A DNA stretch of 16,119 nucleotides, from positions 1-16,119 of the IMG/VR virus record IMGVR_UViG_2526164619_000006. One strand, given 5' to 3'. This stretch comes from a virus (lineage: Duplodnaviria > Heunggongvirae > Uroviricota > Caudoviricetes). Below, in pieces: positions 10,193-16,119 of this stretch (its first letter is position 1; the number at the start of each line of letters is the position of its first letter). A model generated the notes under the pieces. The model was not told where the DNA came from and made no database searches. It was given only the letters and a program-made list of their open reading frames with translations. The translations under genes were made by a program, and so were the position numbers.

Positions 10193-10879
10193 ATGACCCC
10201 AATAAAAATATTTATGACTATTGCTGATTTCAAACGGCCTAAATTGGAGCTCCCAAACGGGGCAAACAAACTACTACTGCACTCTTGCTGTGCTCCATGT
10301 TCCGGTGAAGTGATGGAGGCGCTTCAGGCCTCGGGAATCGACTACACCATCTTTTTCTACAACCCGAACATTCATCCTCAGAAAGAGTATTTAATTCGTA
10401 AGGATGAAAATATTCGCTTTGCTGAACAACACGGCGTGCCGTTTATCGATGCTGATTACGACACAGACAACTGGTTTGAACGAGCCAAAGGAATGGAATG
10501 GGAGCCCGAACGAGGGATCCGTTGCACCATGTGTTTTGACATGCGTTTTGAGCGGACAGCGCTGTACGCCGCTGAAAATGGTTTCAGTGTGATCAGCAGT
10601 TCACTGGGCATTTCACGCTGGAAAAATATGCAGCAGGTTAACGAGTGTGGGCGGCGAGCTGTTGCGCATTATCCGGGTATGGTGTACTGGGATTATAACT
10701 GGCGCAAGCAGGGCGGCTCGTCCCGTATGATTGAAATCAGCAAGCGCGAAAAATTCTATCAGCAGGAATATTGTGGCTGTGTGTATTCTCTGCGCGATAC
10801 CAATCTACACCGCAAATCTCAGGGACGCCCTCTTATCAAAATTGGCCAACTCCACTACGGAAAAGAAGAGAAGGAGTGA
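10193..10879 (+). CDS. queH: DUF208 / QueH-like protein (epoxyqueuosine reductase family)
   Basis: Intact 228-aa ORF with [36 protein letters not shown] and EYCGCVYS, which I recognise as the conserved QueH signature motifs. An extended -10-like TGcTACACT lies at 10171..10179. Confidence 0.7.
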
Positions 10880-10989
10880 TTTTATGGATCACCTTTCTGA
10901 TTGATTTCATATTGGCGAGGTGACGTGAGTTAAGTAGAATGGCTGCGTGAACCGCCCCGGGTTTCCTGGAGAGTGTTTTATCTGTGAAC

Positions 10990-11872
<883 letters not shown>

Positions 11873-11876
<4 letters not shown>

Positions 11877-12199
11877 TTTTTCCAGAGGCGGTCGAACTCC
11901 GCCTTCGCAAAATAAGCGGAAGCCTGGCGAAGGATATCGTTACTGCGGCGCAGTTCACGATTTTCACGCTCCAGCTCTTTCAGACGCTGACGTTCAGCGG
12001 TGGTGAGCCCGCCATCACCGCCTCCGGTATCCCGCTCATGCTGGCGTACCCAGACACGCAGAGTCTCCGGTGTACAGCCAATTTTTGGGGCAATGGAACA
12101 AATTGCCGCCCACTGTGAGTCATATTCGCCCTGACTTTCCAGAACCATACGAATCGCCCTCTGACGGACTTCGGGGGAAAAACGAGTATTTTTAGTCAT
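11873..12199 (-). CDS. IS629-like OrfA
   Basis: 108-aa [44 protein letters not shown].. Confidence 0.85.
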
Positions 12200-12425
12200 C
12201 CTGTTTACCTCTTTCTCAGGGAGTTTAGTCTCCAGGATTCCCGGGGCGGTTCAGCGGGTGCTTGAGGCTATCTGTCTCAGGCATGAACACTGAAAGGCAG
12301 ATAGAGAAAAGCCCCAGTTAACATTTCGCGTCCTGCAAGACGCTTAACATTAATCTGAGGCCCAATCTATGTCTCACAAATGTAGATTAGCCTCTTACGT
12401 GCCGAAAGGCAAGGGGAAGCAGGCT

Positions 12426-12581
12426 ATGAAGCAGCAAAAGGCGATGTTAATCGCCCTGATCGTCATCTGTTTAACCGTCATAGTGACGGCACTGGTAACG
12501 AGGAAAGACCTCTGCGAGGTACGAATCCGAACCGGCCAGACGGAGGTCGCTGTCTTCACAGCTTACGAACCTGAGGAGTAA
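12426..12581 (+). CDS. hok: Hok/Gef-family membrane toxin (51 aa)
   Basis: MKQQKAMLIALIVICLTVIVTALVTRKDLCEVRIRTGQTEVAVFTAYEPEE: single transmembrane helix plus the conserved Cys and C-terminal region of Hok/Gef/RelF-type toxins. Track ORF 12369..12581 adds an in-frame upstream extension (possibly mok-like). Confidence 0.8.
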   Translation: MKQQKAMLIALIVICLTVIVTALVTRKDLCEVRIRTGQTEVAVFTAYEPEE

Positions 12582-12651
12582 GAGACCCGGCGAGGGAGAA
12601 AACCCTCGCCACCTCTGATGAATCAGGCATCCTCAACGCACCCGCACTTAA

Positions 12652-12676
12652 CCCGCTTCGGCGGGTTTTGTTTTTT
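12652..12676 (+). terminator. Rho-independent terminator downstream of hok
   Basis: cccgcttcggcggg GC-rich hairpin followed by ttttgtttttt. Confidence 0.6.
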
Positions 12677-12748
12677 CCTGGCATTCTGGTTTACAATTCG
12701 CACGTCAGCCTGAACAACTGGCACCTGCTGCGCCAGCAGAGAAAGACG

Positions 12749-13027
12749 ATGGCGCACAATACCAAATCACACAATTCTGATAATTCAGCTGTCTTTGCCA
12801 GCAGGCACGGGCGGCGTTCCCGCACATTCAAATCTGATTGGTACCATCATTCCCCATGTACTGAAGAACAAGCTGAATGGCTAATTCAGTGCTACCGCAG
12901 ACACGGATACGAGATTAAGAAAGCCCTCAGCCTCGATTATCGTCACTGGATAATCTCCGTCAGGCTTCCTTACTCTGAACGCCCACCGCGTCCGTCCCGC
13001 ACATTCCAGCAACGCATCTGGAGGTAA
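12749..13027 (+). CDS. Small basic hypothetical protein (92 aa)
   Basis: ATG 12749, in frame within track ORF 12668..13027, whose 5' part overlaps the hok terminator. Sits between hok and the DUF968 gene. Confidence 0.4.
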   Translation: MAHNTKSHNSDNSAVFASRHGRRSRTFKSDWYHHSPCTEEQAEWLIQCYRRHGYEIKKALSLDYRHWIISVRLPYSERPPRPSRTFQQRIWR

Positions 13028-13028
13028 C

Positions 13029-14084
13029 GTGCGGGTATTACTTCGACCTGTTCTGGTACCGGAACTCGGGCTGGTGATCGTTAAGCCGGGCTGTGAATCC
13101 ATGCCGGTATTCCACAATACCCGGGTACTGGTGGAGCCGGAACCGAAAAGCATGCGTAATCTGTCGTCCGGGGTCGTTCCTGCCGTTCGCCAGCCGCTGG
13201 CGGAGGATAAATCATTACTGCCATTTTTCAGCGACGAACGAGTGATTCGTGCTGCTGGTGGCGCTGGCGCATTGTCTGACTGGTTACTGCGCCATATTAA
13301 ATCCTGCCAGTGGCCACACGGCGATTATCACCACAGTGAAACCGTCATTCACCGTTATGGTACCGGCGCAATGGTGTTGTGCTGGCACTGCGACAACCAG
13401 CTGCGCGACCAGACCTCCGAATCACTCGGGCAACTTGCTCACCAAAACCTGTCTGCATGGATGATTGACGTCATACGCCATGCAATGAATGGCTCGCAGG
13501 AACGGGAATTATCGCTGGCTGAATTATCCTGGTGGGCGGTCCGCAATCAGGTGGCGGACGCGCTACCGGAAGCGGTATTACGTCGTTCGCTGGGGTTGCG
13601 TGCGGAAAAAATCCGCTCAATGTACCGTGAAAGCGACATCGTACCGGGAGAGCAGATCGCCACCAGCATACTGAAGCAGCGCACAAAAAATCTTGCGCCG
13701 CTGCCTCACGCCCACCAGCAAAACCCGCCACAGGAAAAGACGGTGGTCAGCATTGCCGTTGATCCGGAGTCACCGGCTCAGTATCTCCAGCGCCAGAAAT
13801 CACAACGGGAAGAGATGCCTGTATACACGCGCTGGGTAAAAACGCAGAAATGCATGACGTGTGGCAATCAGGCAGATGATCCGCATCACATCATTGGTCA
13901 TGGACTGGGAGGGATGGGAACAAAGGCTGATGATTTGTTTGTTATTCCGCTGTGCCGTAAATGCCATAGCGAACTACACGCCGGGGTAAAAGATTTTGAA
14001 GAAAAACACGGCAGCCAGCTGTTGTTGCTGATTCGTTTTTTAATGCACGCGAGAAATTCGGGTGTTCTGAAGTGGAAAGCATAA
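13029..14084 (+). CDS. DUF968 (YdfU-like) prophage protein with C-terminal HNH-like Cys/His motif
   Basis: 351-aa ORF, GTG start with GGAGG RBS 4 nt upstream. C-terminal CMTCGNQADDPHHIIGHG..CRKCHSELH. Size and context match my recollection of Qin-prophage YdfU. Confidence 0.65.
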   Translation: MRVLLRPVLVPELGLVIVKPGCESMPVFHNTRVLVEPEPKSMRNLSSGVVPAVRQPLAEDKSLLPFFSDERVIRAAGGAGALSDWLLRHIKSCQWPHGDYHHSETVIHRYGTGAMVLCWHCDNQLRDQTSESLGQLAHQNLSAWMIDVIRHAMNGSQERELSLAELSWWAVRNQVADALPEAVLRRSLGLRAEKIRSMYRESDIVPGEQIATSILKQRTKNLAPLPHAHQQNPPQEKTVVSIAVDPESPAQYLQRQKSQREEMPVYTRWVKTQKCMTCGNQADDPHHIIGHGLGGMGTKADDLFVIPLCRKCHSELHAGVKDFEEKHGSQLLLLIRFLMHARNSGVLKWKA

Positions 14085-14450
14085 ATGACTGAACGCATAG
14101 AATTTGTTTTGCCTTACCCGCCAACGGTGAACACTTACTGGCGACGTCGTGGCAGCACATATTTTGTATCAAAAGTCGGTGAGCGTTATCGCCGTGATGT
14201 GGCGCTTATTGTTCGCCAGCAGCAACTGAAATTAAACCTGTCCGGAAGGCCGGCAATAGAAATTATTGCAGATCCACCGGATAAGCGCCGTCGTGACCTG
14301 GACAATATCCTGAAGGCACCACTGGATGTACTGACGCATGCGGGGCTGCTCATAGACGACGAGCAGTTTGATGAAATTAATATTGTGCGCGGTCAGCTTG
14401 TTCCTGGTGGGCGGTTGGGGATAAAAATCACAGAACTGGAGTACGCATGA
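14085..14450 (+). CDS. rusA: RusA-family Holliday junction resolvase
   Basis: 121 aa with LPYPPTVNTYWRRRG .. DKRRRDLDNILKAPLDVLTHAGLLIDDEQ .. GGRLGIKITELE, matching the RusA pattern. The start overlaps the upstream stop (TAAATG). Confidence 0.85.
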   Translation: MTERIEFVLPYPPTVNTYWRRRGSTYFVSKVGERYRRDVALIVRQQQLKLNLSGRPAIEIIADPPDKRRRDLDNILKAPLDVLTHAGLLIDDEQFDEINIVRGQLVPGGRLGIKITELEYA

Positions 14451-15136
14451 ATAACCAGTATTTACAGTTTGTTCGTGAGCAACTCATGATTGCCACCGCC
14501 GATTTGAGTGGATCAACAAAAGGGCAGCTTGAGGCCTGGCAGGAGAATGCCATGTTTGATACAGGGCGTTACAGGCGTAAAAAAATCCGGTACCGCGATG
14601 AAGTGACTGGAAAAATGATAACGCGGGATAATCCACCAATCCCGGGAAAGCAATCGCTGGCGAAGGGGGCGTCAATTCCTCTCGTCAGTCCGGTTGAGTT
14701 TTCGACATCATCGTGGCGGCGGGCTGTTCTGTCTCTTGAAGAACATTATAAAGCCTGGTTGTTGTGGTGTTACAGCGGGAGTATTTGTTGGGAATATCAG
14801 ATCGCGATAACGCAGTGGGTGTGGAATGAATTTAAAACCCGGTACGGCACCAGAAAAATTGCAGGGAAAACGCAGGAGCGCGTGAAGAAGTTGATCTGGC
14901 TGGCGGCACAGGATGTCAGAGGATGGATTACCGGGTGTGAGGTCTACCAGAGACAGGAGCTTGCCAGACTGTGTGGAGTTAAGCCTGATAACTGGAGCCA
15001 TAATTATGCGAACTACTGGCGTGAGATGTGCGATATTTTTAAGAGTCTCGATAGAGAATCTGTGATTTGCACCGTGAAAATAAGAGCGCAACAAAAAGCG
15101 ACTTTTTCACGACGAGATATTGCAAAAGTCAATTAA
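14447..15136 (+). CDS. Putative late-gene antiterminator (Q-like), assigned mainly by position and size
   Basis: 229-aa Cys-rich ORF immediately after rusA (ATGA overlap), followed by a promoter-like element and terminator. No similarity to lambda Q or the short 82-type Q that I can confirm from memory. Confidence 0.4.
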   Translation: MNNQYLQFVREQLMIATADLSGSTKGQLEAWQENAMFDTGRYRRKKIRYRDEVTGKMITRDNPPIPGKQSLAKGASIPLVSPVEFSTSSWRRAVLSLEEHYKAWLLWCYSGSICWEYQIAITQWVWNEFKTRYGTRKIAGKTQERVKKLIWLAAQDVRGWITGCEVYQRQELARLCGVKPDNWSHNYANYWREMCDIFKSLDRESVICTVKIRAQQKATFSRRDIAKVN

Positions 15137-15148
15137 ATAGCGTACGTT
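15120..15148 (+). promoter_or_regulatory. Candidate sigma70 promoter at the 3' end of the Q-like gene (pR'-like)
   Basis: TTGCAA (15120..15125), 17-bp spacer, TACGTT (15143..15148). Confidence 0.25.
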
Positions 15149-15203
15149 TCGTATAAATCTGATATTTTGCCGATTTTGTACGCGATGGCAAAGTAAGAAA
15201 AAA

Positions 15204-15225
15204 CTGCCGTCAGGCGGTTTTTTTT
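15204..15225 (+). terminator. Candidate rho-independent terminator (tR'-like) downstream of Q-like gene
   Basis: ctgcc-gtca-ggcgg short stem (one G-U pair) followed by 8 T; preceded by an A-run. Confidence 0.4.
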
Positions 15226-15347
15226 ATGCCCAAAATCGCGTCAGTACAGTAAACACGCTGGTGGTTGCGAATACGGGTCTTTCAGCTTGCTGGCTTTTTC
15301 GACAAGAGTTATTGGTATGTCACGTTAACCGGAAAAAGTAAAAAGAC

Positions 15348-15545
15348 ATGCTAAAACAGCAGGATATGACAGAAACCGCCAGAGTGGTGTTTAATGAATT
15401 AAGCGTTACCGAACCGGCGACAGTCGGGGAGATAGCGCAGAATACTTACCTTTCACGCGAACGCTGCCAGTTAATACTGACCCAGCTGGTTATGGCGGGT
15501 CTGGCAGACTATCAGTTCGGTTGTTACAGACGCCTTCCGCAGTGA
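15348..15545 (+). CDS. Small hypothetical protein (65 aa), possible winged-helix DNA-binding
   Basis: Track ORF; segment TVGEIAQNTYLSRERCQLILTQLVMAGL resembles an HTH recognition region. Weak RBS, so the start is uncertain (alternative ATG 15366). Confidence 0.35.
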   Translation: MLKQQDMTETARVVFNELSVTEPATVGEIAQNTYLSRERCQLILTQLVMAGLADYQFGCYRRLPQ

Positions 15546-15559
15546 AGGCTTTTTTATTT
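15532..15559 (+). terminator. Rho-independent terminator
   Basis: gccttc-cgcagt-gaaggc hairpin followed by ttttttattt; it overlaps the stop codon of the 15348..15545 ORF. Confidence 0.55.
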
Positions 15560-15572
15560 GTGGTAAATGGGC

Positions 15573-15603
15573 GGCTGGTGGGTGTTAGGGGCACCCACCA
15601 GCC
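15573..15603. repeat. Perfect 12-bp-stem inverted repeat (hairpin)
   Basis: ggctggtgggtg / ttagggg / cacccaccagcc. No T-tract follows on either strand. Confidence 0.6.
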
Positions 15604-15644
15604 ATCTGCTCATGCGTTGGGTTCACAAGCAAAGCTCAGGCCCA

Positions 15645-15663
15645 CTGCTTTGCGCAAAAGCAG
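15645..15663. promoter_or_regulatory. Palindrome ctgctttgcgcaaaagcag, candidate operator ~35 bp upstream of the methyltransferase start
   Basis: 7-bp arms ctgcttt/aaagcag around a gcgca centre. Confidence 0.35.
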
Positions 15664-15695
15664 AATGAGCCTATCAGAGACAGGCTTAATGATTC

Positions 15696-15920
15696 ATGCT
15701 TAATACTGTAAAAATATCCAGTTGTGAGTTAATCAACGCCGACTGCCTGGAATTTATCTGGTCGTTACCCGAAAATTCTGTTGACCTGATAGTCACGGAC
15801 CCGCCGTACTTTAAAGTGAAGCCTGAGGGCTGGGATAACCAGTGGAAGGGCGACGATGATTACCTGAAGTGGCTGGACCAGTGTCTGGCGCAGTTCTGGC
15901 GGGTGCTGAAACCTGGGTAA
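15696..15920 (+). pseudogene. Beta-class DNA methyltransferase (N6-adenine or N4-cytosine), 5' fragment truncated by IS1
   Basis: Motif IV DPPY (LIVTDPPYF) lies near the N-terminus. The ORF stops at a TAA supplied by the IS1 terminus after 73 native codons. Confidence 0.75.
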
Positions 15921-16119
15921 TGACTCCAACTTACTGATAGTGTTTTATGTTCAGATAATGCCCGATGACCTTGTCATGCAGCTCCACCGATTTTGAGAAC
16001 GACAGTGACTTCCGTCCCAGCCTTGCCAGATGTTGTCTCAGATTCAGATTATGTCGCTCAATGCGCTGAGTGTAACGCTTGCTGATAACGTGCAGCTTTC
16101 CCTTCAGGCGTGATTCATA
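15916..16119 (-). mobile_element. IS1, partial (runs off the window), inverted relative to the IS1 at 8448..9215
   Basis: Starts ggtaatgactccaacttactgatag.. and by eye is identical to the reverse complement of the insB-end of the first IS1 copy. Confidence 0.9.

Follow-up and report, generated by a model that had tools for sequence, protein, structure and literature searches.

A hokD-type hok/mok/sok module with an IS629-type insertion at the predicted start of its toxin transcript

What remains of the control of a hok toxin gene when an insertion sequence (IS) lies exactly at the 5′ edge of its locus? We addressed this question in a 16,119-nucleotide stretch of a Caudoviricetes record (IMG/VR IMGVR_UViG_2526164619_000006, positions 1 to 16,119; hereafter the window), in which the IS ends at 12253 and the hok ATG follows 172 nt on. 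An initial annotation of this DNA had described a Hok-family locus, an IS629-like element at its 5′ edge, the displacement of any upstream promoter or antisense control region, and a fold-back pairing between the first bases after the insertion and a stretch just before the terminator. All of its coordinates, including those of the IS end, the hok ATG, and both complementary stretches, were recovered as given. We conclude, with a probability of roughly 0.75, that the locus is a complete hok/mok/sok module of the hokD type that received a simple IS insertion between the −10 element and the +1, and that the module was disarmed because hok mRNA is largely lost while Sok is kept.

The toxin gene is a 51-aa open reading frame (12426..12581, + strand) that matches the full-length profile PF01848 (E = 1.2e-23), and 100% identical Hok proteins occur in E. 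coli, E. albertii, and Shigella. The 172 nt between the IS end and the ATG (12254..12425) consist largely of a Hok-type leader: Rfam family RF01794 was detected at 12256..12431 on the + strand over the full model (1-157) with 121.6 bits (gathering score 59; E = 8.8e-28). The consensus of this family opens with GGGUGCUUGA and closes at the hok AUG, in hok-sense orientation. The Pfam and Rfam matches thus confirmed the assignment to the Hok family. RF01794 is named "sok antitoxin", but it marks the toxin mRNA leader and not the antisense RNA, and Sok would be mislabelled in annotations that adopt the strand of the match. Downstream of hok, an intrinsic terminator (12650..12676, + strand) has a 7-bp stem with five G-C pairs followed by a T run. 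From the Rfam leader start, the terminator, and the fold described below, the full-length hok mRNA is predicted to span 421 nt (12256..12676, + strand), with tac, ucb, the Sok target, mok, hok, fbi, and the terminator all intact.

A mok-like frame of 70 codons (12369..12581, + strand; ATG at 12369) is in frame with hok, and its 70-aa product is called by gene callers in uninterrupted alleles. In R1, by contrast, mok is out of frame with hok. We considered the in-frame mok as an oddity and dropped the idea, as the annotated K-12 mokC/hokC pair is arranged likewise. The locus combines a small membrane toxin of the Hok/Gef type (~50 aa), an RF01794 leader, and an overlapping mok whose start precedes that of hok. 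Of the family's traits, toxicity and post-segregational or rifampicin-induced killing are predictions for the window locus. The Tyr47 codon of Hok, UAC, lies inside UUACGAA (12563..12569) and thus in a UACG context. For hokB, a change of Tyr to Cys through A-to-I editing by TadA has been reported, and in hokC, hokD, and hokE it is said to affect the C-terminal position (bioRxiv 10.1101/2025.08.07.668861).

The element next to this locus is an IS629/IS1203-type member of the IS3 family, 1306 bp long (10948..12253, − strand), as identified by its inverted repeats, open reading frames, Rfam match, and alignment to a relative. Its terminal inverted repeats, at 10948.. and ..12253, are perfect over the first 14 nt (TGAACCGCCCCGGG) and match at 23 of the first 25 nt. 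It is flanked by two copies of a 3-bp target-site duplication, GCG (10945..10947 on the left and 12254..12256 on the right), where uninterrupted alleles have a single GCG; with the last G of the right copy, the hok mRNA is predicted to begin. Target duplications of IS629 are 3-4 bp long (PMC3271280). The window copy is 98.8% identical to an annotated 1310-bp IS3-family copy, and its close relatives are named IS1203 or IS629 in RefSeq. Together with the duplication and the inverted repeats, this identity bore out the proposal of an IS629-like element exactly at the 5′ edge of the locus. A search of the IS629 paper (PMC3271280) for a link between hok and IS629 returned a single co-occurrence, the word "Hokkaido".

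The sole gap in the alignment with the 1310-bp copy is 4 bp (ACGC on the + strand) missing at 11673/11674 of the window. On the − strand, orfA is intact (12199..11873), whereas orfB is divided by this deletion after 11673 into two frames of 118 aa (11876..11520) and 222 aa (11658..10990), so that an intact OrfAB transposase is not encoded. The ALIL frameshift pseudoknot is present (11918..11802, − strand; RF01497, 120.2 bits), and the ~1.3-kb length, the inverted repeats, the 3-bp duplication, and the orfA-orfB arrangement with a −1 frameshift pseudoknot are all as in IS629/IS1203. Because the 4-bp deletion splits orfB, the window copy is probably non-autonomous, so that transposition or excision would depend on a transposase provided in trans.

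Upstream of the IS, we identified the displaced native hok promoter, TTGGCG-17-TAGAAT (10912..10940, + strand), which was the sole consensus sigma-70-like site on both strands when 10850..12800 was scanned. It now lies 1.3 kb from the transcript and points into the IS, antisense to the transposase, and its end at 10940 is 7 nt before the last duplicated G. In 23 distinct relatives, which belong to Escherichia, Pseudocitrobacter, Citrobacter, Pantoea, and Photorhabdus, a −10-like hexamer (TATAAT, TAGAAT, TATATT, TATTAT, or GAAAAT) stands exactly 6 nt before GGG(T/C)GCTTGAG. This conserved spacing places the hok +1 at the first G of the motif, which we infer to be 12256 in the window, within about 1 nt. 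The IS would then be located between the hok −10 and +1, with no transcript nucleotide lost. In uninterrupted alleles the toxin promoter is directly upstream of the transcript start, whereas 1306 bp of IS separate the two here.

The corresponding empty site is widespread. The joined flanks (10748..10947 + 12257..12456) occur without interruption in 741 complete E. coli genomes, with identities of up to 99.8%, where they are annotated as QueH and HokD, and ten further contigs or assemblies carry QueH followed 180 nt on by the 70-aa Mok/Hok frame. Because the target duplication coincides with a matching contiguous empty site in these 741 genomes, the event is a simple transposition in which 3 bp of the target, GCG, were duplicated. 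None of 5,426 complete E. coli genomes contains the insertion allele with its exact IS-hok junction, the identical junction was likewise absent from a GTDB search with one genome per species, and no complete genome covers >60% of the window in a single region. On ETEC plasmids, hits that resembled the junction (H32 to H46, query 1-132) proved to be an IS inside another IS and not hok. An IS629-like element near hokD was listed for 58 genomes. Three of these loci were inspected and rejected as the same event: the IS is 108 bp or ~500 bp upstream, or ~140 bp downstream of the hok stop codon and there beyond the terminator.

The antisense gene fared differently from the promoter. By alignment with the annotated K-12 sokC, a Sok RNA of ~77 nt is predicted at about 12377 to 12301 on the − strand, where it overlaps the mok start codon. 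In its fold (−31.1 kcal/mol, z = −5.6), a long hairpin separates a single-stranded 5′ tail from a U-rich one. A putative sok promoter can be read at 12384..12412 (− strand) as TTGCCT (12412..12407)-17-TAATCT (12389..12384), with a G at 12377 as the +1. It scores below the threshold of the consensus scanner; its position agrees with the 5′ end of K-12 sokC, and its −35 is conserved as TTGCCT/TTGACC in the alignment. The sok gene and its promoter, with ends predicted by homology, thus appear to lie inside the locus and to be untouched by the IS, and a cis-antisense Sok with predicted expression is present at the sequence level. The predicted Sok RNA is transcribed toward the IS and in parallel with the transposase genes, and only 47 nt lie between its 3′ end and the left inverted repeat (IRL). 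If its terminator were read through, transcription that starts at the sok promoter would run on into orfA.

These results divide the initial annotation's proposal that upstream control had been displaced. The promoter is indeed displaced, itself intact at 10912..10940, whereas the antisense region is internal (12377 to 12301) and was not displaced. The annotation had named two findings that would speak against it, namely a promoter and antisense RNA gene wholly downstream of 12256, or an mRNA 5′ end further downstream. Alignment to K-12 sokC puts sok and its promoter wholly downstream of 12256, which corresponds to half of what the annotation had named; the predicted mRNA 5′ end, by contrast, falls on the insertion point itself (12256, ±1 nt).

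We then examined whether the mRNA keeps the long-range pairing characteristic of hok. The two stretches pointed out earlier, ggtgcttgagg at 12257..12267 and cctcaacgcacc at 12631..12642, correspond to a 5′ tac element (GGGUGCUUGAGG; 12256..12267, + strand) and an fbi element (CCUCAACGCACCC, CCUCAA(C)GCACCC; 12631..12643, + strand). In the minimum free energy fold of 12256..12676, the first 12 nt pair with 12631..12643, with one bulged C, and so close the whole molecule. This fold has −169.9 kcal/mol (z = −6.5), and 0 of 100 shuffled sequences were as stable. When the last 48 nt are removed (fold of 12256..12628), the 5′ end pairs instead with a ucb-like box, AAGCCCC (12309..12315, + strand), and this stem is also part of the Rfam consensus structure. 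That tac pairs with fbi as long as the RNA is complete, and with ucb once its 3′ end is trimmed, corresponds to the alternation described for R1 hok in the Gerdes-lab literature.

To follow this helix among relatives, 53 related loci were gathered with one genome per species, and the 42 with enough flank for the 5′ motif and 3′ box, from Escherichia, Kluyvera, Citrobacter, Pseudocitrobacter, Pantoea, and Photorhabdus, were used. All 12 of the 12 positions form standard pairs in 14 of the 16 distinct 5′/3′ haplotypes among these 42 loci. Non-cognate 5′/3′ combinations also pair well (mean 11.25 pairs, against 11.9), and because the helix itself is highly conserved, the evidence for it lies in compensatory changes and not in the pair count. 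Such double changes were found at position 4 (U-A to C-G) and at positions 11 and 12 (G-C to A-U). The fold and the covariation in 16 haplotypes uphold the earlier suggestion of a hok fold-back; the tac-fbi complementarity is, by these comparisons, not a product of chance, and the predicted tac-fbi and tac-ucb pairings are both present in the window. An RNA duplex scan of the whole upstream against the whole downstream regions had given over-extended duplexes that were barely above shuffles, and it was replaced by the count over the 12-bp helix.

Among the 42 species-representative loci, about six are without a recognisable tac or fbi (L009, L010, L019, L031, L049, and L051). The routes of loss include deletion of tac, a K-12-type relE-hokD fusion (also seen in one Kluyvera genome), a 3′ end truncated by IS186, and mutation of fbi. 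Among hok loci, the RNA control elements commonly decay.

Given this arrangement, the most likely consequence is the loss of most hok transcription, with Sok retained. Native-start hok mRNA would no longer be made, as its promoter and +1 are separated by the IS. Read-through over 1.3 kb of untranslated IS RNA, antisense to the transposase, would be weak; strong polarity and Rho-dependent termination are expected in an RNA of this kind. Sok would still be produced from its intact internal gene, and the net effect would be a toxin that is transcriptionally uncoupled and an antitoxin that is retained. A scan of the IS end for an outward promoter found none at consensus stringency, and a relaxed scan gave at most 7/12 matches, compared with 9/12 for the native hok promoter.

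Transcripts that begin at the hok promoter, in queH, or at weak promoter-like sites in the IS end could still reach hok. Read-through or a weak IS-end promoter might keep the toxin expressed from a 5′-extended hok mRNA, which may still be regulated by Sok and tac-fbi or may be misregulated, its tac no longer at a free 5′ end. Within 10940-12256 there is no strong + strand terminator, the only terminator-like site inside the IS being a weak candidate with a 5-bp stem (10957..10969), and promoter-like sites with 7/12 matches occur near the IS end, such as TTTACC-16-TAGTCT at 12204..12231. Against these stand the termination expected in the antisense RNA, the weakness of the candidate promoters, which fall far short of the native one, and the orientation of the element: the end that faces hok is the IRL (the transposase-start end, upstream of orfA), whereas IS3-family elements carry the outward −35 for hybrid promoters in the IRR, the IRL having an inward −10 (PMC9330008). 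In K-12, gef/hokC has been reported to be transcriptionally active despite an adjacent IS186 (PMC3562002), so that a nearby IS does not guarantee silence. On balance, we regard continued expression of the toxin as unlikely. It is doubtful, too, that the insertion is without functional effect because chromosomal and prophage hok loci of this sort were already inert and IS629 merely accumulates in prophages. In O157:H7, 62% of IS629 copies are in prophages and the element has no strict, sequence-specific target (PMC3271280), and about six of the related loci described above lost tac or fbi in other ways. The uninterrupted allele, however, is widespread and keeps all regulatory RNA elements with compensatory changes, and this speaks for a working module under purifying selection; the representative Hok homologs tested in one study were toxic regardless of localization (bioRxiv 10.1101/2025.08.07.668861).

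An IS-mediated rearrangement or deletion that placed foreign DNA beside hok and removed the native upstream region has precedents at related loci, namely an IS3-family element that cuts ~14 nt into the leader in pEC529_02 (L001) and the replacement of the whole leader by relE in K-12 hokD. For the window this origin is hardly credible, as the 3-bp duplication is perfect and the flanks join seamlessly, at 99.8% identity, to a site found in hundreds of genomes; together, the duplicated target and the corresponding empty site refute it. A more elaborate proposal is that the IS629 insertion serves as a reversible off-switch, excision restoring the hok promoter, or that the 5′ edge of hokD-type loci is a preferred or selected site for IS3-family elements. 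Precise excision of IS629 by the IS-excision enhancer IEE, with transposase in trans, is known from the literature. The hot-spot idea draws on three independent but anecdotal insertions, one at the +1 in the window, one ~14 nt inside the leader in pEC529_02, and one 108 bp upstream in M171-1, and we consider either version quite improbable. In pEC529_02 (L001 2601..), the IS3-family element replaces the first ~14 nt of the leader and tac is lost, whereas in M171-1 (L003 2601..2709) it lies 108 bp upstream of the +1 and the promoter is intact.

Returning to the reading of a simple insertion into a complete module, we compared the window with known loci. Its surroundings are those of a mosaic lambdoid prophage nin region, in the order queH, hok, a rem-like gene, DUF968/ydfU, rusA, and Q; hok genes show enrichment within prophages (bioRxiv 10.1101/2025.08.07.668861). 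Among the closest uninterrupted counterparts is that of E. coli 4/1-1 (NZ_CP023844.1, 1447535..1447934), whose queH-hokD segment is 99.8% identical over 400 nt of joined flanks and which shares the gene order DUF977, queH, hok, DUF968, rusA, and Q. There the promoter directly abuts the transcript without an IS, whereas in the window the IS lies between them. The Qin prophage hokD (relF) of K-12 has a hok ORF identical to that of the window at the DNA level, an identical or nearly identical fbi and terminator, and rem and ydfU as common downstream neighbours. Its homology starts only ~16 nt before the ATG, however, with tac, ucb, mok, and sok replaced by relBE, while the window keeps all of them. 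The R1 hok/sok (parB) system resembles the window in its stable mRNA locked by 5′/3′ pairing, the tac-ucb alternative, mok coupling, and a cis-antisense Sok, and the window's own match to the family was shown with Rfam and Pfam; R1 hok/sok resides on a plasmid, and the window locus on a prophage with an IS-uncoupled promoter.

The K-12 hokC(gef)/mokC/sokC locus is another parallel. As in the window, its 5′ end, GGGTGCTTGAGGCT, follows the −10 by 6 nt, mok shares the frame of hok, the antisense Sok overlaps the mok start, and a chromosomal hok carries an IS outside the coding frame. The Sok hairpin of the window is 18 nt longer than that of K-12 sokC. At hokC, however, fbi and the terminator are lost to IS186A, which is inserted 20 bp past the stop codon, whereas the IS3-family element of the window sits at the 5′ edge and removes only the promoter linkage. 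Disruption of fbi by IS186 in K-12 hokC is reported in the passage of PMC3562002 that cites Pedersen & Gerdes 1999. That chromosomal hok loci are IS targets, as had been noted for the window, is a known theme of which K-12 hokC with IS186A is one example; ORF-sparing IS hits on such loci are already established, and the window adds a 5′ promoter-uncoupling allele to the 3′ fbi-removing one of K-12 hokC.

The finding matters little beyond annotation; similar events are already known for chromosomal hok genes. Annotation pipelines label the gene HokD and miss the separation of the toxin from its promoter, the intact sok and RNA control elements, and the defective IS copy. The window nevertheless provides a clean example of a hok locus that was probably disarmed by an IS without damage to the toxin ORF, with the insertion point resolved to the nucleotide, and the allele could be used as a natural promoter-uncoupled variant for testing prophage hok/sok function.

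Three further observations were made among the loci collected here. IS186/IS421-type elements occur at the same point 3′ of the hok stop codon, in a G/C-rich hairpin (GGCGGGGAG..ATCCC|ATAA), in K-12 hokC and pEC529_02, and PSS-12 appears to carry one at the same point by its identical offset. The sites are at L001 2911..2960, L004 (K-12 hokC) 432..452, and L071 about 2763..2957, and their recurrence suggests a hot spot at which IS186 insertion removes fbi. Directly upstream of hok, queH (10193..10879) encodes a full-length epoxyqueuosine reductase QueH (PF02677, E = 1.1e-65), and an identical QueH protein was found in 9,174 blocks of the assembly collection. Hok sequences 96-100% identical to the E. 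coli protein were also recovered from assemblies of Acinetobacter idrijaensis (L021, a 275-bp contig) and Xanthomonas pisi (L026, a 431-bp contig), and these tiny contigs look like E. coli DNA contamination.
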